A stretch of 64,000 bases of DNA from an uncultured Candidatus Saccharibacteria bacterium. Its GTDB lineage: Bacteria; Patescibacteriota; Andersenbacteria; UBA10190. Shown piece by piece: positions 7,028-21,105 of this stretch. Under the pieces are notes generated by a model that saw nothing but the letters and a program-made list of their open reading frames with translations, had not been told where the DNA came from and ran no database searches. Each line of letters begins with the position of its first letter. Positions within the stretch are counted from its first letter, which is position 1. The position numbers and the translations under genes were made by a program. The stretch covers positions 70,021 to 134,020 of the forward strand of contig CAZSUC010000001.1 of NCBI GenBank assembly GCA_964610055.1, in the 5' to 3' direction.

Positions 7028-9109
7028 CTAAATTTTCCAAACCGGCTCACCCGACCAGTAACCCCAGCCCATTAATAGCAAGCTTACTATTAGCCCAACT
7101 GTTATACTGATACCAAACTTCATTCCATCCCAATCCCATCCCGTCTTAGGCAGGCTACTCGCCCCACCACCAACACCACCTATTAAAACATCATCTTGTA
7201 TTCGTGGTAATATACGATATCCAGACCCTGTTTCCGACACTACCCCTACAATCGTCACGTCCATCCCTTTACTCATCTTTGGTTTTTGAATGCCAGTGTT
7301 AGCATTAATATATATCTTAACCTCACCACTACCATCATCAACATAAAAAACATTACCGCTAGTCGAAGTAACCGTCCCTGCTATTCTTACTAACCAACCT
7401 TCCGTCTCTTCTCCTACTTCACCTGTTTTAATTTCATGTGGTATTAACTCGCTATTACTACTAACTTTTGCCACACTTGTCTTTGCCGCTAATTTAACTC
7501 TTGCTTCCCCGCTTAATTCAGTTAATTCGCCTGTTAGCCTTACGGTGTCACCCAAGGTTAATTCCGGAAAACCATCATAGCTATATATTTGTATTCCCGA
7601 ACCAGATAAATATATCGTTCGTTCGCTTAACATTCCCGGGGCAACACTAACCACACCTTCAATAGTCACATTAGATCCTTTTTCTTGTTGCCTCACCTCC
7701 GCAATTGCAACCGTCACCGTTTGCTCACCATCCACATCACCCACAACACTTTCCTCTTCATCTTCTTCATCAACATCACCCTCACTCTCTTCTTCGTCTT
7801 CTTGTTCTGTAATTTTATTTTTTTCTCCCCGCGTTACTGTTGTCGTTATCTCCCAATCACCATCACTATTTCGAGCGTATGATTGCCCCTCTGGAATCAC
7901 GCCATATTCAATCTTATCCTTTTCCTCTCCATCTGGACTTTTTAGATAGATCGTAGAACCACCATTCTTAACTGTGTACGTCCACACTACATAACCATGC
8001 CCGTTAATCTGAATATCACTAATAACATGCGTGGTACTACCATAAACTAATTGCCAATCCGTTAAATCAACTTCATCCCCATCTTGGTTATACACCTCTA
8101 CAAATTCTTCCCCGCTATCCTTGCCTTCCGGATTAGGAAACACTTCATTTAAAATCATTGCGTCGCTATATTCTCTTTCTTGAATTATAACTTGTTTACT
8201 TGCCTCATCTTCTTCCGTGCCATCAGAAACCCTCAAGTTAATCGTATATTCACCCACATCCGCATATTTACATTTCATTATTACATCTGTACCTGTTTGA
8301 TCGTTTCCACAATCCCACTCATAACTTAATTCGTCTCCGTCGCTATCCTCTGAATTTTCTCCGCTAAATTCTAGTTCATCCCCCACTAGGCCTTCTTCTG
8401 GACCAGCCACTTCCGCCACCGGCGCATTATTAACTTCCAGTTCACTATTCTCTGCCCTAGGTGTCCCATACGCCCCTTCTTCTTCCCAAAACTCATTACT
8501 CTTACAACTCTCAGTCACACAAGTATGCCATCCTGTTACTGGATCACTATTCCTTTCCATTGATTGCCGCACTTCCTTCTTTATTCCCGCTGGCCAGCCA
8601 TCATCATTAATCTCGACCGTATCAATATCAATACACTCATCATCCTCACAAGCCTGTAATTTCAATTCTTCCCCATCATCTTTTAAAGATACAGCCGATT
8701 TAACCAAGTCAACTTCAATCGTGTCACTTAATAGCGACTTCGGATCGTCACTGTCGTAATGACTAATTAAAAAATAATCATTCGGCATTAAAATTCCACT
8801 CAGAGATAATGCACCGCTACTACCGGCTCCTGTAATTTGCCATCCATCTAAATCAATTTTTTGATCAGTTAAATTACGTAATTCAATCCATTCATCCGCA
8901 GTAGTACTAGACGAACTCCCCATCCACATTACTTCATTAATTATTACGCTTCCTGGCACAAACCCAGTTTCATCTTCAGTCACATCCGCATTCTCACTCG
9001 TATTTTCACTTTCTAGTACTTCCACACTCGGACTTACCTGCGCTTGTGCTACTGCCACTATCAACAACATTCCGATTCCCTCAATCAGGATTTTAATTTT
9101 CCATTTCAC
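7028..9109 (-). CDS. cell-surface protein with two lamin-tail domains, a PKD-like domain, acidic linkers and a C-terminal LPXTG-type sorting signal
   Basis: N-terminal signal peptide. LTD-like motifs VIINEVMWMG...WIELRN and MILNEVFPNPEGKDSGEEFVEVYN. PKD-like YEWDCGNDQTG...VSDGT. C-terminal LPKTG followed by a hydrophobic stretch and a short tail. Confidence 0.6.
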   Translation of the reverse strand: MKWKIKILIEGIGMLLIVAVAQAQVSPSVEVLESENTSENADVTEDETGFVPGSVIINEVMWMGSSSSTTADEWIELRNLTDQKIDLDGWQITGAGSSGALSLSGILMPNDYFLISHYDSDDPKSLLSDTIEVDLVKSAVSLKDDGEELKLQACEDDECIDIDTVEINDDGWPAGIKKEVRQSMERNSDPVTGWHTCVTESCKSNEFWEEEGAYGTPRAENSELEVNNAPVAEVAGPEEGLVGDELEFSGENSEDSDGDELSYEWDCGNDQTGTDVIMKCKYADVGEYTINLRVSDGTEEDEASKQVIIQEREYSDAMILNEVFPNPEGKDSGEEFVEVYNQDGDEVDLTDWQLVYGSTTHVISDIQINGHGYVVWTYTVKNGGSTIYLKSPDGEEKDKIEYGVIPEGQSYARNSDGDWEITTTVTRGEKNKITEQEDEEESEGDVDEEDEEESVVGDVDGEQTVTVAIAEVRQQEKGSNVTIEGVVSVAPGMLSERTIYLSGSGIQIYSYDGFPELTLGDTVRLTGELTELSGEARVKLAAKTSVAKVSSNSELIPHEIKTGEVGEETEGWLVRIAGTVTSTSGNVFYVDDGSGEVKIYINANTGIQKPKMSKGMDVTIVGVVSETGSGYRILPRIQDDVLIGGVGGGASSLPKTGWDWDGMKFGISITVGLIVSLLLMGWGYWSGEPVWKI

Positions 9110-9623: not shown

Positions 9624-10634
9624 TTATTCCATCTCTACTAAATGCGCTCTTCCTTCATCCGTTACCATCCTCCCTCGCGGCGTCCTCTCTAAAAATCCAC
9701 ACTGAATCAGAAATGGTTCAATCACTTCTTCTAAAGTACGTTCTTCTTCACCTGTTACTGCCGCCAAAGTTTGTAATCCTACTGGCCCACCATCAAAATG
9801 TTCCAACATGGCATTTAAAATTAACCTATCAGCCGCATCCAGTCCTTTATGATCAACCTCTAATAAACCCAATGCTTCAATCACAACTTCACGTGTTATC
9901 TGTCGCTGACTTGCCACTTGTGCATAATCACGCACACGTTTTAAAAGTCGATTAGCAATCCGCGGAGTCCTCCGGCATCGAGTCGCGATCTCTTTAATAG
10001 CCTCTTGATTAATTTCTATTTGCAACAATCTCGCTGACCTTTCCACAATTTGAGCTACTTCATCTTCAGTATAAAAAGTTAATCGATAATCCATTCCAAA
10101 CCGATCCCGCAACGGCGATCCTAACATCCCTGCTTTCGTTGTCGCCCCCACCAAAGTAAACCGCGGTAAATCTAACCGTAAAGTCTTCGCTCCTGGACCC
10201 TGCCCCACCACCAAATCCAAGGCGTAATCTTCCATCGCCGGATACAGCACTTCTTCAATTGAACGTTGCAAACGATGTATTTCATCAATAAACAGCACAT
10301 CACCTGGTTGCAAATTAGTTAGAATACCGGCCAAATCAGCCACTTTAGTTAAAGCCGGTCCAGCAGTCACTCGAATATTGGTTTGCAATTCATTAGCAAT
10401 AATTTTAGCCAAACTTGTTTTACCCAAACCCGGCGGACCCGCTAATAACACGTGTTCTAAAGCCTCTTGGCGCTGCCGTGCTGCCTCTAAAAACACCCTT
10501 AGAGACCGCTTCATCTGCTCTTGCCCCACAAACTCGTCTAGATTCTGTGGTCTAAGTGTCGCATCTAGTTGCCGGTCGTCTACATCCGCCCGCGCATCTA
10601 CTACCGTCATTGTTTCCGATTCTTCAATCGCCAT
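9624..10634 (-). CDS. ruvB: Holliday junction branch-migration helicase RuvB
   Basis: AAA+ [20 protein letters not shown] with RuvB-typical sequence throughout. The real start is probably the internal MAIEESE (about 10634) rather than the track start at 10697. Confidence 0.9.
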
Positions 10635-10862
10635 ACCCCTTACTATACCATACATTAGCCGAACAACGCATAAAGACACTTGACAAAATACAGTCAATCA
10701 CTTAAGATATTATGTTCTTCTTTTAACAACTGTAGACATTGCTTTTGTGGGGTATATGTCCAGATCGGATTGTGGTGGTGCCTAGCACGACCCTTTTCCT
10801 CGACACTTACCTTCTCGTGTCTACAGTTGTTTTTAGGAGAATAAAACCGGCATAATTCATCT

Positions 10863-11555
10863 ATGCCCCTACCACGCCACCCCCTTGCTTCCAGTTTTTT
10901 ATTTACCCTGGCTTTATTACTAATTCCAGCCAGCATTTACTTAGAAAAATTCCTCCCCAATACTTGGGATTCTCCTTTATTTCACCCTGCGTATTTAAAC
11001 GAATCTTCTTTTCACACTCCTACTCACACCGACGGAACTTATCTCCCCCCCCTTATTGATCAAGATACTGTCCTAACTCCCGATCAAAACCCTGTCCTTT
11101 TACCCCGCACCACCACAGTAACTTCTAATGCAACACTCACTATCCAAGCCGGTACCGAGATTTACACCAACGAATTCAGCTCTTTAATTATTGCCGGCAC
11201 CCTAAATATAACTGGACAAGAAAATCAATCAGTCCTTTTCACCACCAACGAAACACACTCTGATAATCAAACCTGGAATGGAATTATTTTATTACCTAGC
11301 AGTAAAAGCTATATCGATTTTACCCATATCACCCATGGAGTTCCCGCCCTTACCTGCGAATCAGGTAGCTCTGCTTTTATTGATCACTCTTCTCTATCCT
11401 CCCCTGTTCTTTCTGTTTTCTCGTCTTCCTCCAACTGCTATATTACGAATTCTCGATTAATCAGTGCTCGCGACGGTATGCATATTATCAACTCCCATCC
11501 CACTCTAACCAATATTACCTATTCTATTGCGAAAAAAGCCGTAGTCGAGTATTAA
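10863..11555 (+). CDS. hypothetical secreted/membrane-anchored protein, possible beta-helix repeats
   Basis: Hydrophobic N-terminus, Thr/Ser/Asn-rich, repeated TIQAGTEI / LNITGQEN-type segments. No family recognised. Confidence 0.35.
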   Translation: MPLPRHPLASSFLFTLALLLIPASIYLEKFLPNTWDSPLFHPAYLNESSFHTPTHTDGTYLPPLIDQDTVLTPDQNPVLLPRTTTVTSNATLTIQAGTEIYTNEFSSLIIAGTLNITGQENQSVLFTTNETHSDNQTWNGIILLPSSKSYIDFTHITHGVPALTCESGSSAFIDHSSLSSPVLSVFSSSSNCYITNSRLISARDGMHIINSHPTLTNITYSIAKKAVVEY

Positions 11556-11564
11556 TATCCTACT

Positions 11565-12281
11565 ATGTCCGGACATTCAAAATGGCATCGCATTAAACAT
11601 CAAAAAGCCAAAACCGATAGCCAACGCAGCAAGCTTTTTGGTCGTCTAAGTCGTGAAATCAGAGTCGCCGCTCAAGCTGGCAGCAAAGACCCAGATCTCA
11701 ACGCGGCTTTACGAGAAGCAATCGAACGAGCTAAAAAATTTAATCTTCCCCAAACTAATATTGATCGACTTCTTAATAAGGACGCTGCCAGTCTTTCTAC
11801 TGTTACTTATGAAGGCTATGGTCCCAACGGAGTTGCTATTCTTATTGAAGCCACAACCGACAATACCAACCGAACCGTTTCGGAAATGCGCACCATATTT
11901 AAACAACATGGCGGCAGTTTAGGCGAGCCAGGTAGTGTGCGCTGGAAATTCTCCCCTTCCCTCCACCTTACAGCTCACCTCCAATCGTTAATCTCTCCCG
12001 AAGAAATCGAATTAGAATTAATTGACGCGGGTGCCGATGACATTAACTACGAAAATCCAGTTTTATCTATCACCAGTGCGCCTACCACAGAAAATAATCT
12101 ACTTCCCATTTTAACTAAATATAACGCCACTGACGTTTTCATCGAACAAACTCTTGTCGTACCAACTAATCAAAAAATTTCACTAACTCCATCCGACCAA
12201 GCTAAATTATTACAACTACTTGATGCTATTAGCGATCAAGACGATGTTGAAGTTGTTTATCATGATGCACAGTTGAATTAA
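11565..12281 (+). CDS. yebC: YebC/PmpR family DNA-binding regulator
   Basis: N-terminal MSGHSKWHRIKHQKA and AAQAGSKDPDLNAALR are family signatures. Confidence 0.9.
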   Translation: MSGHSKWHRIKHQKAKTDSQRSKLFGRLSREIRVAAQAGSKDPDLNAALREAIERAKKFNLPQTNIDRLLNKDAASLSTVTYEGYGPNGVAILIEATTDNTNRTVSEMRTIFKQHGGSLGEPGSVRWKFSPSLHLTAHLQSLISPEEIELELIDAGADDINYENPVLSITSAPTTENNLLPILTKYNATDVFIEQTLVVPTNQKISLTPSDQAKLLQLLDAISDQDDVEVVYHDAQLN

Positions 12282-12338
12282 ATAAAGTATTGACTTTTAT
12301 ATTTCGCCAGTACATAACAACTACGGTACAATTTACTT

Positions 12339-12833
12339 ATGATTATCCTTGGTCTTGATCCTGGTATTGCGCGCACTGGTTTCGGAATTATCCGCGCCCA
12401 TCAATCACCCGACTTTCTTCGTTGTGGTTGCCTTACCACCACTCCTAATGAACCCACGGCTGATCGTCTCTTTCGTCTTGGCCAAGACCTAACTAAACTT
12501 ATTCAACAATTTCATCCTGACCAGGCTGTTATTGAAACTGTGTTCTTTGGTAAAAATGCTAAAACTGCCATGCTTACTGCTGAGACCCGAGGCACTTTAA
12601 TTTATGTCCTTCGCCAACACCATATTCCTGTTTTTAATTTAACTCCCCTACAAATTAAATCGCGCTTAACCGGTTACGGCTCCGCTTCTAAACAACAAAT
12701 TCAAAGCATGGTTGTTAAGCGCTTAAGCTTAACCAACGCCCCTCAACCAGACGATGCCGCTGATGGACTGGCGGCCGCTCTTTGTTTAGCTGAAGAGCCC
12801 CTTTCTTTTGCCCCACTCTATTCTTTTTCATAA
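12339..12833 (+). CDS. ruvC: crossover junction endodeoxyribonuclease RuvC
   Basis: MIILGLDPGIARTGFGII start with RNase H-like catalytic Asp; 164 aa. Confidence 0.85.
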   Translation: MIILGLDPGIARTGFGIIRAHQSPDFLRCGCLTTTPNEPTADRLFRLGQDLTKLIQQFHPDQAVIETVFFGKNAKTAMLTAETRGTLIYVLRQHHIPVFNLTPLQIKSRLTGYGSASKQQIQSMVVKRLSLTNAPQPDDAADGLAAALCLAEEPLSFAPLYSFS

Positions 12834-12837
12834 TCAT

Positions 12838-14400
12838 ATGCACTTTACTAAAACATTTACATTAATCTTTTTAACGCTTTTATTTGCGACTGCTTTCCCT
12901 ATTATCTCTCTTGCTCAAACTGCCATCCCCGATCCTGAAAACGCAGAAAACCCAACCGTCACCGCTAATGCTGGCCCGGATCGCAAAACTCTAGTCAATA
13001 AAAAAATATCTTTCGACGCCACTGAATCAGAAATTTCAAACGAAACCGAACTTCAAGAAACCCTCTGGAATTTTGGTGACGGCACTCGAGTTACTGGCGA
13101 AAAAGTCACACATGCCTATATTCGCCCTGGTACTTATACTGTCAAACTAACCCTCACCACCTCCTCGGGGAGCTATGAAGACACTGCCACTGTTGAAGTT
13201 TTTAACCGAGTCATGATTCTTTTAGCAGATGACAACGTCTCAGATGATCAAATTAATCTTTTCCAACAACAAGCCGCTGAAGAGGACTTGCTCTTGCTCT
13301 CGCTTAAATCCAAAAGCAGCGGACCAGAAGCTGTTATTGAAGAAGAATTAACCCAGCAACTAATTGCTGCTCGTGAAGATTTTAGTCAGGCCGAACTTAT
13401 TGTTAGCTGGACCACTGGTAGTGTTGGCGCTAATGTTTTATCCAAATTTGCTCAACACATCAAACAAGCTGACGAACTTTCATTTAAAGATTTAAACCTG
13501 GAAAACAAAGGATTAATTATTCTTTCCGACACACCTTTTCCAGTTATCTCCCCAACCGCTCAAAACACTTACGACCAACTCAATCCCCAATACGTTCTCT
13601 TAACTCGTCCCGACGCTTTTTCTCTTTTTTTCTCCGCCCAAACTCCGGATGAAGCTCGAGAAAATGTTATGTCTGCTCACATCGAGCACCGAGTCTTAGG
13701 AGCATTCTCTAGTCGCACTACCAGCGGGCTTACCGCTACCAACTTCATGTCTTTTGGTGTTAGCTATCTAGTTAACAACGGTATTCCTATTAACAACATC
13801 CTTCTTATCTTGCTCATTCCTGTTATCGCCACTATTCTTGCTTTTGCTCGGCAAGTTATCGGACTCAAGGCTTTTGGTTTAGTCACCCCCGCTATTACCA
13901 CCCTCGCCTTTCTTGTTATGGGATTAAAAGTTGGTCTCACTGTTTTCTTAGTTGTCTTACTGTCCGGCACTATTACTCGCTTTATTTTGCGCCGCTTTCA
14001 TCTTCTTTATCTGCCGCGCATGGCTCTAGTTCTAACAACCGCCAGCCTCGCTATTCTACTCATGTTTGGTGCTTATGCTTCCACTAGCGACATGACTTCT
14101 GTTTCTTTCTCTATTTTCCCCATCTTGATTCTTATTATCCTGGCTGAAGAATTTATCGCAGTTCAGTTTAGTCGCGGCTTACGAACCGCTATGCGCATCA
14201 CTGCCTGGACTTTAATCCTGTCTATCGTTTCGTATTACATTGTAAGTTGGGAAATTCTCCGCACCTTCCTCTTGTCCTACCCTGAAGTTATTCTATTAAG
14301 CTTCCCTGTTAACATCTTACTCGGCCGCTTTAGCGGACTACGTTTAGTTGAATATGTTCGCTTCCGAGAATTATTACGCTATGTCCCTCCTGCCGAGTAA
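12838..14400 (+). CDS. membrane protein with signal peptide, extracellular PKD domain and a C-terminal 6-7 helix TM module (7TM-type)
   Basis: Likely start MHFTKTF (signal peptide ending SLA/QT). PKD-like NFGDGTRVTGEKVTHAYIRPGTYTVKLTLTTSSG. The C-terminal 200 aa is almost entirely hydrophobic helices. Confidence 0.55.
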   Translation: MHFTKTFTLIFLTLLFATAFPIISLAQTAIPDPENAENPTVTANAGPDRKTLVNKKISFDATESEISNETELQETLWNFGDGTRVTGEKVTHAYIRPGTYTVKLTLTTSSGSYEDTATVEVFNRVMILLADDNVSDDQINLFQQQAAEEDLLLLSLKSKSSGPEAVIEEELTQQLIAAREDFSQAELIVSWTTGSVGANVLSKFAQHIKQADELSFKDLNLENKGLIILSDTPFPVISPTAQNTYDQLNPQYVLLTRPDAFSLFFSAQTPDEARENVMSAHIEHRVLGAFSSRTTSGLTATNFMSFGVSYLVNNGIPINNILLILLIPVIATILAFARQVIGLKAFGLVTPAITTLAFLVMGLKVGLTVFLVVLLSGTITRFILRRFHLLYLPRMALVLTTASLAILLMFGAYASTSDMTSVSFSIFPILILIILAEEFIAVQFSRGLRTAMRITAWTLILSIVSYYIVSWEILRTFLLSYPEVILLSFPVNILLGRFSGLRLVEYVRFRELLRYVPPAE

Positions 14401-15703
14401 AAACCAAACCGATATTCTTGGTTTAAACGCCCGCACACTTCAATACATTCGTCGGGCTAATTCCGGTGCCGCCACTCGGCTCGCCAACAATAAACTTGCT
14501 ACTAAAAAAGCTCTTCAAAAAGCCGGCATTGGCACACCACGACTGTTCGCCCGCATTGCCTCTCGCCAAGAATTAAGTCGTTTCCGCTGGACTAAACTCC
14601 CCTCTTCTTTTGTCCTAAAACCCAATTCTTCTTCCGGCGGCAGCGGTATTATTGTTATCTTTGGTCGTAACAAAAAAGGTAACTGGGTCAAAGCTGATCG
14701 CACCGAGATCCTTATCCCACAACTACGTAATCATGTCATGGATATTTTGGACGGTAATTTTTCAGCTAGCAATATTCCCGACGTTTCTTTTTTTGAACAG
14801 CGAGTTAAATTACACAGCTCCCTTAAACCATATTGCGTCCGCGGTGTACCGGACGTTCGCGTTCTTGTTTACAATCTCGTCCCCGTTATGGCCATGTTAC
14901 GTTTACCCACCGAAGAATCAGGCGGCAGAGCCAATCTACACGCTGGCGGCATTGGAGTTGGAATTGATTTAATCAATGGTTATGCCACAACCGCTATTCA
15001 TCGCGGCCGCATTATTGAGAATTTACCAGACAAACGTCTGAGCTTTAGCAGCCTCCGCATCCCCAACTGGAATGAGATTTTACTTATTGCCAGCCGCGCT
15101 GCCCGTGCCACCAATCTTAATTACGTTGGAGTCGATATTGCCATTGATCGCGATGATGGCCCACTTGTCCTTGAAATCAATGCTCGCCCCGGCCTCGATA
15201 TTCAGTTCGCAAATATGACCCCACTTAAAAATCGTCTCCGTCGCATTGAAGGTTTGCGTATCAAAGGCCCCGAAAAAGGCGTCCAATTAGCTAAAACGCT
15301 TTTTGGCGAAGACATTCTCCAGGAAATTGAGGATATTTCCGGTCGCCTTGTTCTTGGTATTGAAGAAACAGTCACTTTAATTGACTCTCAAGGTCAACCT
15401 CACCCCTTGCGCGCCAAAATCGATACAGGAGCTTATCGCACCACAATTGATGAGTCGTTAGCCACAAAATATGGCTTACATACCCCTATTCTTAAACACC
15501 AACACGTTCGTGCTGCTCTCGGGGCTAGCATTAGACCGGTTGTTGAAATATCATTTTTATTACAGAATCGCCTAGTTAAAACAGAAGCTTTTATCACCGA
15601 TCGGTCTCACATGAACTATGATGCTATTATCGGTCGCCGTGATTTAAAAGGTTTTCTAGTCGATCCAACTAAACCTGAAAAATTTATTCAAAATATTAAA
15701 TGA
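14354..15703 (+). CDS. RimK-like ATP-grasp ligase fused to a C-terminal retropepsin-like (putative ATP-dependent zinc protease/DUF785-type) domain
   Basis: ATP-grasp features (VLKPNSSSGGSGIIV, ...ANLHAGGIGVGID..., LEINARPGL). The C-terminal roughly 120 aa carry DTGA (KIDTGAYRTTIDE), a retropepsin-type motif. The start is ambiguous (14348 TTG, 14354 ATG or 14381 ATG). Confidence 0.6.
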   Translation: MFASENYYAMSLLPSKNQTDILGLNARTLQYIRRANSGAATRLANNKLATKKALQKAGIGTPRLFARIASRQELSRFRWTKLPSSFVLKPNSSSGGSGIIVIFGRNKKGNWVKADRTEILIPQLRNHVMDILDGNFSASNIPDVSFFEQRVKLHSSLKPYCVRGVPDVRVLVYNLVPVMAMLRLPTEESGGRANLHAGGIGVGIDLINGYATTAIHRGRIIENLPDKRLSFSSLRIPNWNEILLIASRAARATNLNYVGVDIAIDRDDGPLVLEINARPGLDIQFANMTPLKNRLRRIEGLRIKGPEKGVQLAKTLFGEDILQEIEDISGRLVLGIEETVTLIDSQGQPHPLRAKIDTGAYRTTIDESLATKYGLHTPILKHQHVRAALGASIRPVVEISFLLQNRLVKTEAFITDRSHMNYDAIIGRRDLKGFLVDPTKPEKFIQNIK

Positions 15704-15772
15704 AGTCTCTCTCTTTGCAGAAAACCGGCAATATGCTAATAGTTTTATGCTTGTTAGATTATAAAGAAACAT

Positions 15773-18610
15773 ATGGCCCAACGTCGTTTCTCTCGCCATC
15801 AAAACGTTCGCTCTCGATTAAAGATTAAATCCAAGCGCCCCACCACTCGCTTGATTCTTGGCGTTGCTTTTATTACTGGTAGCCTCTTTTTTCTAGTTAG
15901 CGCAGCCGTTGTTCTTTGGTGGAGTAAAGATTTACCCAATCCACAAAACATTGCCTCTCATCGCATCTCTGAATCAACTAAAATATACGATCGTACCGGT
16001 GAACACATTCTTTATGAGATTGGCGACATTCATCGCACCACCATCACCCTTGACCAAATGTCACGCTACATTCGCCAAGCCACTATTGCCGCCGAAGATA
16101 GTCAGTTTTACGAACATCATGGCCTTGATTTTAAAGGCATTATTCGCGGCGTTATTCTTAAACCTTTAACCGGTCGTCGCGCTCAAGGCGGATCCACTAT
16201 TACTCAACAGCTTATTAAAAATGCTCTTTTATCATCCGAGCGCACCATTCAACGTAAAGCCAAAGAAGCTGTTCTTGCTCTTGAACTAGAGCAACGTTTC
16301 AGTAAAGACGAAATTTTAGAAATGTACCTTAATGACATTCCCTACGGCGGACAAACTTACGGTATTGAAGCAGCTTCTAAGACTTTCTTCAATAAATCAG
16401 CCGCGGATTTATCTCTCGCTGAAGCAAGCTACCTCGCTGCTCTCCCTCAATCGCCTTCTTACTACTCTCCTTACGGGTCTCATTTTGAGGACTTAAAAGC
16501 TCGTCAAGAATATATCTTAGATCGCATGGCCAACCTCGACATGATTACAGAAGAACAGGCCAATTCCGCAACTAACGAAGAAGTGTCTTTTCAACCACGC
16601 CAAGAATCTATCACGGCGCCACATTTCGTTTTTTATGTGAAAGAATTACTTGAAGAAGAATACGGTGAGCGCCTAATTGAACAAGGAGGACTTGATATTA
16701 TTACTACCCTCGACCTAGACCTGCAAAAAGACGCCGAGGAAGCCTTAAAAACCCAAAAAGACACTTTAAACAGTCTTGGTGCGTCTAACGCTGCTCTTGC
16801 CGCCATTGATCCACGTACCGGTGATATTTTAGCCATGGCTGGATCAATTGATTACTTCGACGAAAGTATCGACGGCAATGTTAACGTCACTATCCGTCAC
16901 CGCTCCCCCGGATCATCAATCAAGCCCTTTGTTTATGCCTCTGCTTTTACTAAAGGCTTAACTCCTGACACTATTTTAGTCGACGCTGAAACTAATTTTG
17001 GCCAGGACTATATTCCTAAAAACTACGACTTATCCGAACATGGACCTGTTAGTATCCGCACCGCCTTAGCTAATTCACTAAACATCCCAGCTGTAAAGGC
17101 TCTTTATTTAGCCGGCGTTAAAGAGGCCACTGAACTCGCTCGCAATATGGGCATGACTTCTTTAACTGATCCTGACCGATACGGTTTATCATTAGTTCTT
17201 GGGGGCGGAGATGTTCGTTTACTTGATGAAGTCTCTGCCTACGGAGTTTTTGCTAATGACGGCACCCATTACGACCACCGTGCTATTCTAAAAGTCTCCT
17301 CAAAAGAAGAAACCCTAATTGACGTTACTGATGAATCCCCTCAAGGCGAGCAAGTTTTAGATCCTCAGATTGCTCGCGAAATTACCGATATCCTCTCTGA
17401 TAATAACGCCCGTGCTCTAACTTTTGGCTTGTCTAGTTCTCTCCAACTCGGCAGTCGCCCCGTAGCGGCCAAAACCGGCACCACCCAAGAATATCGCGAT
17501 GGTTGGACCATGGGATACACTCCTTCTTTAGTTGCCGGCGTCTGGGTTGGGAATAACGACTATACCCCTATGAAAGACAGCTCTGCCGGAGCTCGTACCG
17601 CTGCTCCTGTTTGGAACAAATTTATGCGTTTAGCCTTAGAAAACCAACCAATTGAGCAATTTGTGGAGCCAGATCCTATCGAAAACATTCCGCATGCTAT
17701 CTTACGAGGAGAATTACCTGAAATAAAAGTTAAATGGGAAGAAGAAACTCAAACCGCTTATACTATTGACTGCCCTGTTGCGGTTGGAGAAACCAGAACC
17801 TTTAAAGAATTGCACAGCATCCTCTTTTACATTAATCGCAACAACCCCCTGGGAGACCCTCCTGCCGAAGCTGAAAATGACTCTCAATTCGCTAACTGGG
17901 AAGAAGGAGTCGCTAAATGGCGCACTAAACATAACGAGGAAAACAAAGACAATCCTGACGAAATTCAATACACCTCTTCTCTACCAGAACCAACTTGTAA
18001 CCTAACTAACAGCGACGATATTCCCAAAGTGACCATTACCGAACCCAACACTACCATTCTTCATGACAGCCCCGTCACCGTTAAAGCTGAAGTAGAATCA
18101 AATCAATCCATTCAAGAAGTTCGATTTCTTTTAGATGGCGAAGAAATCGCTCGCCGTACTTCCGAACAGCCTTACACTGCCAGTTTTTCTTTCGCTCAAA
18201 ATTTCTCCGGCAGAAAGACGCTGGAAATATTAGCAATTACCACCGAAAAACTTATTGGCCGCGCTCACCGCACTTTTATCATCAACCCCGACGACTCTCC
18301 TCCTAGCGTTACTTTTCACACCCCTAAAGATGGAGAAAACCTCTCTTCTCCTAATTTCCCATACACCATTAAAGTTACAGCTACGGACCCCAGCGGAATT
18401 GAACTAGTCGATGTTTTATACCGCAAACAAGGCGAAACGTCCTCACATCGTATTGGTCAAACATCCGCCGTTGCCGCTACCGCTCCTAATCGTTATGAGG
18501 TCACTTGGTCAGATCCTCCTGGTACGGGCAATTTTGAAATATACCTTCGCGTTTACGATAAGACCGGAAACTTTGTCGAAACAAACGCTCATACTGTCTC
18601 GATTAATTAA
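15773..18610 (+). CDS. class A penicillin-binding protein (PBP1A-type transglycosylase/transpeptidase) with a roughly 250 aa C-terminal beta-rich extension
   Basis: GT51 motifs (EDSQFYEHHGLD, GGSTITQQL), transpeptidase SxxK (SPGSSIKPF) and KTGT; N-terminal TM anchor. Confidence 0.9.
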   Translation: MAQRRFSRHQNVRSRLKIKSKRPTTRLILGVAFITGSLFFLVSAAVVLWWSKDLPNPQNIASHRISESTKIYDRTGEHILYEIGDIHRTTITLDQMSRYIRQATIAAEDSQFYEHHGLDFKGIIRGVILKPLTGRRAQGGSTITQQLIKNALLSSERTIQRKAKEAVLALELEQRFSKDEILEMYLNDIPYGGQTYGIEAASKTFFNKSAADLSLAEASYLAALPQSPSYYSPYGSHFEDLKARQEYILDRMANLDMITEEQANSATNEEVSFQPRQESITAPHFVFYVKELLEEEYGERLIEQGGLDIITTLDLDLQKDAEEALKTQKDTLNSLGASNAALAAIDPRTGDILAMAGSIDYFDESIDGNVNVTIRHRSPGSSIKPFVYASAFTKGLTPDTILVDAETNFGQDYIPKNYDLSEHGPVSIRTALANSLNIPAVKALYLAGVKEATELARNMGMTSLTDPDRYGLSLVLGGGDVRLLDEVSAYGVFANDGTHYDHRAILKVSSKEETLIDVTDESPQGEQVLDPQIAREITDILSDNNARALTFGLSSSLQLGSRPVAAKTGTTQEYRDGWTMGYTPSLVAGVWVGNNDYTPMKDSSAGARTAAPVWNKFMRLALENQPIEQFVEPDPIENIPHAILRGELPEIKVKWEEETQTAYTIDCPVAVGETRTFKELHSILFYINRNNPLGDPPAEAENDSQFANWEEGVAKWRTKHNEENKDNPDEIQYTSSLPEPTCNLTNSDDIPKVTITEPNTTILHDSPVTVKAEVESNQSIQEVRFLLDGEEIARRTSEQPYTASFSFAQNFSGRKTLEILAITTEKLIGRAHRTFIINPDDSPPSVTFHTPKDGENLSSPNFPYTIKVTATDPSGIELVDVLYRKQGETSSHRIGQTSAVAATAPNRYEVTWSDPPGTGNFEIYLRVYDKTGNFVETNAHTVSIN

Positions 18611-18882
18611 CCTTCCATTTTTACTACAATTTTATTTAGCTTATATTTAGCCATTTTTTGCAAGTGGGATTTTATTTCAAATTCCAATAAATATACTTCT
18701 TGTCGATTAGCGCTTGATCCTACTCTAACCCGAGCTACTCCTTTTTTAATTTCGTCACAATACACCGCCTGAACCAATAATCTTTCTCTTAAAAAATCCT
18801 GCACCAGTATTCGTAAATCACTTTCTTCCCATATTTTTGGTTTCTCGCTGCTTAAAAATACGTTTTTTATTGGCTCAAACAT
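18607..18882 (-). CDS. DUF721/DciA-like small protein downstream of recF
   Basis: 91 aa. Segment GVARVRVGSSANRQEVYLLEFEIKSHL resembles the DUF721 core (L-v-v-ss-wa-eL). Synteny with dnaA-dnaN-recF. Confidence 0.4.
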   Translation of the reverse strand: MFEPIKNVFLSSEKPKIWEESDLRILVQDFLRERLLVQAVYCDEIKKGVARVRVGSSANRQEVYLLEFEIKSHLQKMAKYKLNKIVVKMEG

Positions 18883-19975
18883 CCTGACTAACCATAATTT
18901 TATTATTATTTACCTCAATTCCAATCTTTCTTAAATCTAACACATGCGCATTATTTCTTTGTTGTAAGACTGACGGAACCTTTGTACAGGTTAAAAATGT
19001 TTGTGCGTTCGGTAAGTTTAATAACAATAAATCCTGATGCTTCTCGTCTAACTCGCTCAAAACTTCATCCAATAAAATTACTGGCCTTTCTCTTGTTATT
19101 TGATAAATATATTGGTGAGCAATTAACTTCAATGCAATAACCAAACTACGCATCTGTCCTTGAGACAATATCGCCGCCACAGGTTTATTGTCTATTATTA
19201 TTTCCAAGTCATCACGATGCGGACCATACATTGTATAACCATATTTGCTCTCATATCTAAAAGATTTTTTTAATTCCTCTAACAATTGCTTTGAATCAGA
19301 GCAACTAGCTATTAAATTACATTGAAAATCCAATTTTTCCCCCGAAATACTTTCAAAAACACTATTTAAGCGAGTTTGTGTAAAATCAATAAAACTACGT
19401 CGCTGTTGCCAAACATCTTCCGCGTAATCAGCTAGCACTTGCGACCATACTTCTAATTCAGAGTATCCTGATACCTTTTTTAAAATAGAATTTCTTTGCT
19501 TTAACGCTCTTTGATATTGAACTAAAGCTGATACATACGTCGGAGCGCTTACTAAAATACTATTTAAAAAGTTTCGCCGCTGCGCTGGCCCACGAGTAAA
19601 TATAAAAGTATCCTCTGGTAAAAAAACTACCAACGGATATCGACTAAAAAAAGTAACCAGAGATGCTGGTTGCCCATTTTCTTCTATTCTTAATTTCTTT
19701 GTTGATACTTGATAACGAACACCTAAAACAGCTTCTTCTTGCCCTTTAACCACTACCCCACCTACTCCTACATAATCCTCACCCCACCGCGCACACTCAT
19801 TTACACTTGCTCGAAAAGACTTCCCTCTTAACAGAAAAGCCAGTGCCTCTAAAAAATTAGTTTTCCCTGAAGCGTTCGGAGCTGCTGCTACCAACAAAGC
19901 GTTCCCTGGTAAATCTATCTCATCTACCTGGGTAAAATTACGGAAATTATACAGTGATATTTTGTTTAGATTCAT
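18875..19975 (-). CDS. recF: DNA replication and repair protein RecF
   Basis: N-terminal Walker A APNASGKTN; SMC-like C-terminal LLDEVLSELD; 366 aa. Confidence 0.9.
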   Translation of the reverse strand: MNLNKISLYNFRNFTQVDEIDLPGNALLVAAAPNASGKTNFLEALAFLLRGKSFRASVNECARWGEDYVGVGGVVVKGQEEAVLGVRYQVSTKKLRIEENGQPASLVTFFSRYPLVVFLPEDTFIFTRGPAQRRNFLNSILVSAPTYVSALVQYQRALKQRNSILKKVSGYSELEVWSQVLADYAEDVWQQRRSFIDFTQTRLNSVFESISGEKLDFQCNLIASCSDSKQLLEELKKSFRYESKYGYTMYGPHRDDLEIIIDNKPVAAILSQGQMRSLVIALKLIAHQYIYQITRERPVILLDEVLSELDEKHQDLLLLNLPNAQTFLTCTKVPSVLQQRNNAHVLDLRKIGIEVNNNKIMVSQDV

Positions 19976-19995
19976 ATTCCCCCTTAATCGTACCC

Positions 19996-21105
19996 TTAAG
20001 TCACCTGAATAGGCATCACAATATACGTGTGCACAATATCATCCTCAACTGGCTTAAATAACGTAGGACCATTATTACCCACTGAGCCTACTTTTATTTC
20101 ATTACCTGGTAAATGCTGAGCTCCTTCTAATAAGTATTGAATGTTAAATAACGCTTCCACATCCTCTCCCTCGCCACTAAAAGCAATTTCTGCGCGCCCT
20201 TCCCCTGTCTCGCTTCCAACAACCTGTAAAACCACTTTATCTCCTCCCGGTTGTATATTCATCTTAATCCTCTTCGTGTCACGCGGCAGAAAGACACTTA
20301 GCGTTTTAAGCGCCCTAGTTAATTCCTCCTTATTCACCTGTCCTTCCACTACAAATTTTGAAGGTATTATTTGTTTATAGTCAGGATATTTACCTTCAAC
20401 CAATCGCGAAGAAAACTCAATCCCAACTCCAACCACCGACACTAAACTATCTCCCGGAATAAACGTCACGTCTTTCTGATCAGAAAACAACCTAATAATC
20501 TCTTGAGCACTATTTAAAGGTAACAACACTCCTATGTCCCCTCTTTCATTACTAGACACCGTTACACCTTCCTCTACTAATCTAAAACTATCAGTTGCGG
20601 CCATTATCACTTTATCATTAGAAAAACTTAAAAATATGCTGTGAATTTCTGGTCTAACTTCATCTCGTGCTGCCGCAAAGACAGTTCTGTTTAACGCTTG
20701 GCAAAACTTATCCGCTGGTAAAGAAAAACCACCTTCTGTCGGTTTTTGTGGCAACATTGGAAAGTCATCTTCATTTCCTACGGTAAAAACAGCTTTATAT
20801 CCTTTAGTCACAACCCTCAACATCTTCTCTTGGCTTTCTAAGCGCAACGGTTCACTGCTCGGTAATTGCTGAACAAACTCTAAAAATTTACGAGCCGGAA
20901 CAGCCACAGTCCCCTCTTCTTCCACCTTTCCTGGAACAATTGTATAAACACCTACTTCTAGGTCTGTGCTAGTTAAATTCAATACACCATCTTGTAATCG
21001 TAGTAGTACATTATCTAAAACAGGTAATTGTCTGTTTCTTCCTGCAATAGGCGTAACCTTACTCAACCCTTTTACTAAATTATCTTGTGTACAAATAAAT
21101 TTCAT
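19996..21105 (-). CDS. dnaN: DNA polymerase III beta sliding clamp
   Basis: MKFICTQDNLVKGLSKV...VLDNVLL start; 369 aa; located between dnaA and recF. Confidence 0.9.
   Translation of the reverse strand: MKFICTQDNLVKGLSKVTPIAGRNRQLPVLDNVLLRLQDGVLNLTSTDLEVGVYTIVPGKVEEEGTVAVPARKFLEFVQQLPSSEPLRLESQEKMLRVVTKGYKAVFTVGNEDDFPMLPQKPTEGGFSLPADKFCQALNRTVFAAARDEVRPEIHSIFLSFSNDKVIMAATDSFRLVEEGVTVSSNERGDIGVLLPLNSAQEIIRLFSDQKDVTFIPGDSLVSVVGVGIEFSSRLVEGKYPDYKQIIPSKFVVEGQVNKEELTRALKTLSVFLPRDTKRIKMNIQPGGDKVVLQVVGSETGEGRAEIAFSGEGEDVEALFNIQYLLEGAQHLPGNEIKVGSVGNNGPTLFKPVEDDIVHTYIVMPIQVT

Follow-up and report, generated by a model that had tools for sequence, protein, structure and literature searches.

A predicted CPR version of the RloABC system: a PKD-bearing seven-transmembrane protein paired with an ATP-grasp ligase-retropepsin fusion

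Two overlapping genes lie in a 64-kb stretch of DNA (hereafter the window) whose host is an Andersenbacteria-like, ultra-small bacterium of the candidate phyla radiation (CPR). Gene 1 codes for a membrane protein ending in a seven-transmembrane (7TM) module and gene 2 for an ATP-grasp ligase fused to a retropepsin-like aspartic peptidase. On the basis of their sequences, the two genes are predicted to be the Andersenbacteria-type CPR version of the Rlo system, with modules homologous to RloB, RloC and RloA. RloABC of P. aeruginosa is a retropepsin-like osmotic stress tolerance system, in which the RloA proteins are secreted retropepsins cutting runs of at least 8 Glu residues, RloB is an inner-membrane protein consisting of an inactive transglutaminase and a 7TM module, and RloC is a cytoplasmic ATP-grasp protein (Lormand et al., mBio 2025, PMC12239564).

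Domain architecture of the two gene products

The two products were compared with a canonical rloABC locus (L083), which encodes a RimB-like protein of 170 aa, a Transglut_i_TM and 7TM protein of 508 aa and an ATP-grasp protein of 324 aa, the latter (P0339, a canonical RloC) scoring 440 bits on TIGR02291. The gene 2 ligase showed 41% identity with P0339 over 310 aa (E=2e-73), and the 7TM module of gene 1 showed 33% identity with the RloB-like protein over 189 aa (E=6e-25), a region that includes the tail motif LGR-x-G-x-RL-x-E-x-x-RFR. The peptidase of gene 2 was 38% identical to the RimB-like protein over 47 aa. Profile searches with PF14402, PF14397, TIGR02291 and PF05618 all returned positive matches (Table 1). 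These results bear out a first-pass annotation of the DNA, made by reading the sequence, which had placed two overlapping open reading frames (ORFs) here, had described a signal peptide, a PKD domain and a module of six to seven helices followed by an ATP-grasp ligase with a C-terminal retropepsin DTGA motif, and had suggested such searches.

The gene 1 product was modelled with AlphaFold2 (AF2) from a 44-sequence alignment, with a mean predicted local distance difference test (pLDDT) value of 76. The model returned, in order, a hydrophobic helix, a beta-sandwich, a beta-alpha-beta-alpha domain, seven transmembrane (TM) helices and a short C-terminal amphipathic helix. A26 and Q27, at the end of the predicted signal peptide, are conserved at 90% or more in the family alignment, and the PKD domain matched collagenase PKD domains in the PDB in both sequence and fold. 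The ectodomain had correctly been called PKD-like in the first-pass annotation, but a second domain of about 170 residues between the PKD domain and the 7TM module, here named MID, had been missed. MID showed neither a Pfam match nor a convincing fold match in the PDB, and a profile search retrieved one remote relative only, a CPR PKD protein; this null result is weak, since known family members were also missed by the same search. The identification of MID as a transglutaminase was rejected, as the secondary structure pattern is Rossmann-like and Pfam returned no transglutaminase match. As had been expected, the transglutaminase is replaced in the ectodomain, with no match to PF14400 or PF01841 in the whole of gene 1 by Pfam.

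Conservation in the 7TM protein is highest in the cytoplasmic tail (G496, L501, R502, E505, R508 and F509 in 72 loci), while R338, R381 and Q443 are invariant polar or charged residues inside the bundle. Lys and Arg residues are clustered on the loops predicted to be cytoplasmic and on the tail, which fits an N-out/C-in topology. The NCBIfam model of RloB (NF052267) matched gene 1 at model positions 312-507 only, with 62.5 bits against a full-length cut-off of 900.

The ligase domain of gene 2 scored 211.8 bits on PF14397 (ATPgrasp_ST), whose cut-off is 31.4. It carries the ATP-grasp hallmarks, namely the ATP-binding Lys, the hinge Glu, the Mg-binding D...E-x-N triad and R-x-N-x-H-x-G-G. The corresponding residues (K80, E139, D252, E265-x-N267 and R183-A-N-L-H-A-G-G) are conserved in the family alignment and align to RimK in the PDB, as do the motifs RANLHAGG and GVDI..GPLVLEINARPGL. 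The AF2 fold is nearest to ArgX, LysX, RimK, PsnB and cyanophycin synthetase (CphA); ArgX, LysX, RimK and cyanophycin synthetase are ligases acting on C-terminal carboxylates and polymer-forming ligases. From the invariant residues, the domain is predicted to be a competent amide ligase.

Retropepsins of clan AA are defined by a D-T/S-G-A motif, a C-terminal G-R-D/N motif, a fold of about 100 aa that is all-beta with one C-terminal helix, and an obligate homodimer. The C-terminal domain of gene 2 carries both motifs (Table 1), which do not vary within the family, and AF2 predicted an all-beta structure with one helix. Besides PF05618, the Zn_protease model now named RimB-like, weaker matches were obtained to the gag-type aspartic protease models PF13975 and PF13650, and the sequence matches in the PDB were the RloA structures 9G58 and 9G59 and Ddi1. 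D348, T349, G350, A351, R353, G381, R408, G418 and D421 are invariant in 77 sequences. In RloA, polyglutamate (polyGlu) is coordinated by K46, R114 and R137, and the substitutions R114A and R137A abolish function (PMC12239564). Alignment to 9G59 and 9G58 identified K346, R385 and R408 as their counterparts, which are invariant or at least 93% conserved in the same 77 sequences; R385 and R408 are separated by 23 residues, exactly as in RloA. The domain is thus predicted to be a competent peptidase with specificity for acidic substrates. It contains no cysteines and no signal peptide, resembling cytosolic RimB and unlike secreted RloA, and since the gene 2 product lacks a signal peptide the peptidase is predicted to be cytoplasmic. 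The RloA1, RloA2 and RloA3 models returned 21-31 bits, against cut-offs of 210-280.

The acidic linker joining the two domains might serve as a pseudo-substrate or as a regulatory element for a Glu-directed peptidase. Its use as a RimB-type self-cleavage site was considered unlikely, because RimB needs 5-6 contiguous Glu residues and RloA 8, and the linker has too few.

Table 1. Features of the locus, in window coordinates.
Feature	Position	Strand	Basis or remark
230-aa ORF at the head of the plus-strand block	10863-11555	+	N-terminal hydrophobic segment; Ser/Thr/Asn-rich repetitive sequence
yebC	11565-12281	+	ORF list
ruvC	12339-12833	+	ORF list
Gene 1 (520 aa): signal peptide, PKD, alpha/beta MID, 7TM_transglut (RloB-like core)	12838..14400	+	ORF, start context, Pfam
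Signal peptide, aa 1-27	12838..12918	+	hydrophobic segment aa 3-23, then conserved A-Q
Extracytoplasmic PKD domain, aa 42-121	12961..13200	+	PKD_4, E=4e-18 (Pfam)
MID, Rossmann-like alpha/beta domain, aa 123-295	13204..13722	+	AF2 pLDDT >90, beta-alpha-beta pattern
7TM_transglut module, aa 299-512	13732..14373	+	PF14402, E=2.3e-27, 96.5 bits (cut-off 25)
Cytoplasmic C-terminal tail of the 7TM module, G496..L501 R502..E505..R508 F509	about 14323-14373	+	invariant across 72 loci
Gene 2 (440 aa from ATG 14381): ATP-grasp ligase, linker, retropepsin-like peptidase	14381..15703	+	ORF, Pfam, NCBIfam
RloC/TIGR02291-like ATP-grasp amino-acid ligase domain (predicted)	14432..15250	+	PF14397, E=1.5e-62; TIGR02291, 246.6 bits
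Flexible linker, aa 311-323	15311..15349	+	pLDDT <50, predicted disordered; conserved, acidic, consensus EQEIEDISG
Retropepsin-like (RimB/RloA-like) aspartic peptidase domain (predicted)	15350..15676	+	PF05618, E=8.5e-10, 39.1 bits (cut-off 27)
Catalytic DTGA	15422-15433	+	inside KIDTGAYR, 15416-15439
IIGRRD	15626-15643	+	inside IIGRRDL, 15626-15646
Class A penicillin-binding protein (PBP), directly after the pair	15773-18610	+	ORF list

Distribution and gene order in CPR bacteria

Homologues of gene 2 exceeded 3,600 among the 8,000 candidates scored, and metagenomic homologues number hundreds. The best 120 were 387-461 aa long and contained PF05618 in 117 cases, while the PKD-7TM protein had at least 273 homologues of identical architecture. 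The closest named relatives belong to Candidatus Andersenbacteria, a lineage of the CPR/Patescibacteria. A survey of one genome per species yielded 78 loci with a full-length fusion at 42-75% identity, whose labels include Andersenbacteria, Portnoybacteria, Spechtbacteria, Blackburnbacteria, Kaiserbacteria and Paceibacterota. The architecture, which the first-pass annotation had called unusual, is so in comparison with Proteobacteria but is standard within the CPR, with at least 78 species-level loci.

The 7TM genes were counted with hidden Markov models built from our own alignments in the 73 loci possessing upstream DNA. A same-strand 7TM gene occurred upstream of the fusion in 73 of 73 loci and was directly adjacent in 72; therefore the pairing is not due to chance. 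The 7TM protein had the PKD-MID-7TM form in 31 loci, was a bare 7TM of about 222 aa in 33 and carried an N-terminal extension of about 80-130 aa in seven (295-351 aa in total); one further gene was partial, and one locus (L061) encoded the 7TM, ligase and peptidase in a single ORF. Natural 7TM-ligase fusions were also found in P0357 and P0377. The sole locus whose pair is not directly adjacent is the Andersenbacteria-type L020 (3566-7281), in which a RimK-like ATP-grasp gene (cluster c10) is located between the PKD-MID-7TM gene and the fusion gene.

Outside Andersenbacteria the operon is usually extended by a 505-aa second ATP-grasp and by one or two RimK-like ligases, and sometimes by a MATCAP/QEGLA-type metallocarboxypeptidase. 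Among the 150 best matches in a representative library at 50% identity, 47 were about 750-860 aa long; the two of this size that were scanned (P0252 and P0256) are ligase-retropepsin-MATCAP fusions, as are P0241 (916 aa) and P0310 (644 aa). Other relatives carry an added YdjC domain or a second ATP-grasp, or have the 7TM, with or without a transglutaminase core, fused to the ligase. In L079 (1870-10678) the order is yebC, ruvC, PKD-7TM, an 800-aa ligase-retropepsin-MATCAP fusion, three more ATP-grasps, a second MATCAP of 575 aa and then tyrS, while L081 (525-5366) contains a bare 7TM, a ligase-retropepsin-YdjC fusion and two more ligases. These two expanded operons suggest a multi-step line building and editing a peptide. 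L082 (2253-7801) is a rearranged Rlo-like set, in which a 576-aa 7TM-ATP-grasp fusion lies between a 914-aa protein with repeats of the prenyltransferase/squalene-hopene-cyclase type, which precedes it, and a separate 357-aa Transglut_core protein, which comes after it. No further ATP-grasp, MATCAP or retropepsin gene was found in the 64-kb window, whose locus is the minimal two-gene form, devoid of the extra genes of its expanded relatives.

Gene order was compared over the surveyed loci (L001-L078) and positions 9624-21105 of the window. The order ruvB, yebC, ruvC, 7TM, ligase-peptidase, (tyrS), class A PBP, recF, dnaN is widely kept across CPR lineages, with fusion proteins only 42-75% identical; in the window recF and dnaN lie downstream on the opposite strand, at 18.9-21.1 kb. 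The gene 1 ORF opens at TTG 12808, and the ATG at 12838, 4 nt past the ruvC stop, gives a product with a typical signal peptide; the ORF ends with a TAA at 14398-14400 and its product is 100% identical to the public protein P0121. For gene 2, with its stop at 15701-15703, the candidate starts are ATG 14381, ATG 14354 and TTG 14348. The overlap with gene 1 is 20 nt from ATG 14381 and 47 to 53 nt from the alternative starts, and the public 449-aa product P0001 is 100% identical to gene 2 read from ATG 14354.

Two other features of the window were recorded. Synonymous-site strand asymmetry is extreme at positions 1-21000, where the GC skew at third codon positions is +0.53 to +0.80 in minus-strand genes and -0.50 to -0.74 in plus-strand genes, up to dnaN; since the sign is opposite for the two gene strands, the top strand is strongly C-rich regardless of gene direction. 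The skew falls to about 0 at roughly 21-31 kb and is back at about half strength past 32 kb, its sign remaining constant through the window despite the presence of recF and dnaN at 18.9-21.1 kb. A predicted surface protein of 693 aa (7028-9109, minus strand) has a signal peptide, a weak PKD match (aa 236-310) and the acidic stretch EQEDEEESEGDVDEEDEEES; at its C-terminus an LPKTG motif precedes a TM helix, an arrangement resembling a sortase-type anchor. In other CPR lineages, related PKD proteins are retained within the synteny block described above.

Proposed function and alternative explanations

We favour, with some confidence, a model in which the ligase/peptidase is docked at the membrane and makes and shortens an acidic alpha-peptide rich in Glu on the cytoplasmic side of the 7TM protein; outward passage of the product would probably be the task of the 7TM protein. 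The fusion protein would dock on the invariant Arg-rich cytoplasmic tail and on the loops of the 7TM protein, and its ATP-grasp domain would add amino acids at the expense of ATP; these would most likely be alpha-linked L-glutamate residues, giving an acidic chain either free or on an acceptor. The retropepsin domains may pair as a dimer within the oligomeric ligase. Cleavage of Glu-rich stretches by the dimerised peptidase would then release the product or set its size and sustain ligase turnover, in the manner of RimB and RimK. The Pseudomonas genetics suggest, by analogy, that the product is probably handed over to, or displayed on, the outside of the membrane by the 7TM bundle; its placement in the envelope may then depend on the variable ectodomain.

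Docking on the 7TM tail is supported by the existence of natural 7TM-ligase fusions, and physical coupling of the two proteins is likely, as indicated by the overlapping genes, the kept adjacency, the fusions and the tail being the most conserved part of the membrane protein. A peptide substrate is supported by the relatives that add MATCAP-type carboxypeptidases and RimK-like ligases; these expanded forms argue that the product is a peptide that gets built and edited. A small Glu/Asp-rich ORF that might act as substrate or carrier, proposed in the first-pass annotation, was looked for near the pair, in the window, in L081 and in L079, and none was found; the genes of the L079 operon are too closely packed to accommodate one. 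Other candidates were rejected. The 693-aa surface protein holds the only acidic runs of the window, is extracellular and has Glu residues that are not contiguous. A 52-aa ORF of L081 is apparently a piece of the N-terminal region of an ATP-grasp protein. The 7TM protein ends in ...PPAE in the window, but use of this C-terminus as an acceptor was rejected because its last residues are not conserved and the tail is fused to the ligase in some relatives.

Several observations weigh against the proposed model. A fold search detected no resemblance of the 7TM module to known transporters. The TIGR02291 model ("alpha-L-glutamate ligase-like") has an equivalog cut-off of 314.2 bits, above the score of the gene 2 ligase (246.6 bits), which is an RloC homologue and is not demonstrably an equivalog, and we infer Glu specificity only from the peptidase residues and the family relationships. 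The flap region of the peptidase is about 30 residues shorter than that of RloA, therefore its specificity may differ. The peptidase is predicted to be cytoplasmic, unlike RloA, and the export-then-outside-trimming logic of Pseudomonas is therefore not directly transferable. To our knowledge, substrate, product and transport activity have been established for no family member, not even for RloB and RloC. The model is most vulnerable where the site of the peptidase is concerned, since a cytoplasmic protease beside a ligase fits a RimK/RimB-like cytoplasmic target equally well.

Such a target is central to a possible but unlikely explanation, according to which the 7TM protein is a receptor whose variable sensing ectodomain switches the docked ligase/peptidase, so that a cytoplasmic protein tail is modified and translation is retuned, for instance by polyglutamylation of ribosomal protein S6 as performed by RimK/RimB. 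This would agree with the cytoplasmic, cysteine-free, RimB-like peptidase, unlike secreted RloA, and with ectodomains that are freely swapped (PKD and MID, a 110-aa extension, transglutaminase or none), as is typical of sensors; moreover, RimK/RimB is the only biochemically defined precedent. However, the bare 7TM form of 33 of the 73 loci has no ectodomain for sensing, the ligase is not a RimK orthologue (TIGR00768, 50.6 bits against 143.4), the substrate of the Pseudomonas protease is periplasmic and RloB/RloC-dependent, and the invariant R338, R381 and Q443 inside the bundle suggest that the 7TM protein is more than an anchor.

The neighbourhood of the class A PBP gene, which adjoins the pair in the window and occurs within 6 kb of it in 54 of 79 loci (window counted), would rather suggest a role in cell-wall or glycan modification, with the ligase, joined in other lineages by the extra ligases, attaching amino acids at the membrane to a lipid-linked or glycan carboxylate of peptidoglycan or a different envelope polymer, the 7TM protein acting as scaffold or flippase and the peptidases editing the peptide. 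The Pfam label of PF14397 ("sugar-transfer associated"), the YdjC-type carbohydrate deacetylase fused in one relative, the cell-shape and beta-lactam phenotypes of Pseudomonas rlo mutants and the presence of the Vibrio orthologues in the VxrAB cell-wall-damage regulon point in the same direction. We consider this quite unlikely: the synteny block also holds ruvB, yebC, ruvC, tyrS, recF and dnaN, so that the PBP gene may lie beside the pair through inheritance of the order and not for functional reasons, the polyGlu-binding residues are kept in the peptidase, and the operon has no glycosyltransferase or Mur-type gene. That the ligase is a common RimK or D-Ala-D-Ala-type enzyme, with an unrelated membrane protein as its neighbour by accident, is the case that the first-pass annotation had named as fatal to its own reading; it is effectively refuted. 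The ligase does give weak matches to RimK, Ddl and GshB models, but these are far under their cut-offs and TIGR02291/PF14397 are the best by a wide margin; in addition, all 73 loci keep the 7TM association although identity across the lineages is only 42-75%, and some relatives have the two proteins in one chain.

Returning to the docked ligase/peptidase, a bolder extension of this model, unlikely in our estimate, would regard 7TM_transglut as a synthase-coupled polypeptide conduit. The operons would then form a ribosome-independent line for the assembly, editing and export of an acidic envelope peptide, ranging from the minimal form of the window to expanded ones in which a retropepsin and two MATCAP carboxypeptidases accompany as many as four ATP-grasp ligases, CPR-wide and fixed at the recF/dnaN block. 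If so, a polymer resembling poly-alpha-glutamate could be the product, and it could be important to these ultra-small episymbionts in their surface or osmotic physiology.

The CPR version indicates that the transglutaminase ectodomain is dispensable, as is any ectodomain, that the protease can probably act in the cytoplasm as part of the ligase polypeptide, and that the invariant 7TM tail is the likely docking site. The system adds a conserved, putatively envelope-associated function to very small CPR gene sets, and, being compact, with two proteins only, it is well suited to biochemical and structural reconstitution and useful as a minimal comparative model.

Comparison with known systems

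The RimK/RimB pair makes and trims poly-alpha-L-glutamate and modifies the Glu-rich C-terminus of ribosomal protein S6; RimB lifts the ATPase activity of RimK four-fold and polyGlu is detected only when RimB is present (Little et al., JBC 2025, PMC11957791). A natural, proteolytically active RimBK hybrid is also known, with the protease N-terminal to RimK (PMC11957791). The pair described here resembles this system in combining a cytoplasmic ATP-grasp enzyme of the alpha-L-glutamate-ligase type with a cytoplasmic retropepsin, and in the occurrence of a ligase-protease fusion. However, in gene 2 the protease is C-terminal to the ligase, and since the order is reversed with respect to RimBK the fusion is an independent one. 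The ligase belongs to the RloC family and, besides its low TIGR00768 score, reaches only 24.4 bits on PRK10446 (cut-off 331), the peptidase scores 14.3 bits on the RimB model NF052261 against a cut-off of 200, and the 7TM partner, obligatory for the CPR fusion, is absent from Rim. A looser analogy exists with the enzymes of the tubulin tail code (TTL/TTLL ligases and MATCAP), as relatives of gene 2 are fused to or neighbour MATCAP-type metallocarboxypeptidases (PF08014). The likeness concerns the writer/eraser logic on acidic C-terminal peptides and lies in the enzyme families and not in demonstrated function; the window has no MATCAP gene and no tubulin-like substrate is known.

RloABC is the closest counterpart. 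Hypo-osmotic conditions are lethal to the triple rloA protease mutant, and deletion of rloB or rloC suppresses this effect; in Pseudomonas the system influences survival of osmotic stress, cell shape, biofilm formation and tolerance of antibiotics, and RloB was reported to be 96% proteobacterial (PMC12239564). Since loss of rloB or rloC compensates for loss of the periplasmic RloA proteases, the RloBC product would reach the periplasm. The two systems have three homologous modules in common, namely a 7TM matching PF14402, an ATP-grasp matching PF14397/TIGR02291 and a DTGA-bearing retropepsin matching PF05618. They also share the Lys and Arg residues that coordinate polyGlu, and tightly linked genes in which the 7TM precedes the ligase. 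They differ in that the CPR peptidase forms the C-terminal part of the ligase polypeptide and is predicted to be cytoplasmic, whereas RloA is a separate periplasmic protein with a signal peptide and a disulfide, and in that gene 1 has a PKD and alpha/beta ectodomain in place of the inactive transglutaminase of RloB. Moreover, there are two genes here instead of three, the host is a monoderm-like CPR bacterium, and all three CPR modules fall below the NCBIfam Rlo and TIGR02291 cut-offs.

An association of ATP-grasp, retropepsin-like peptidase and a 7TM protein with inactive transglutaminase was reportedly predicted by Iyer, Abhiman, Burroughs and Aravind in 2009 (Mol Biosyst), a work known to us from reference lists. 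The likeness extends to identical domain families and to the idea of a peptide-ligase/peptidase/membrane module. The first-pass annotation had referred to such a computationally predicted three-part system; the modules are indeed the same, but the system is no longer a prediction only, corresponding to the genetically studied RloABC. The CPR architectures (ligase-peptidase fusions, bare 7TM, added MATCAP, YdjC or ligases) were described in no paper found by our literature search, and the proteins themselves are already public under generic annotations. The three-module system is therefore already known, from the 2009 prediction and from the genetics and structures of 2025, and what is new is its CPR architectural variant.

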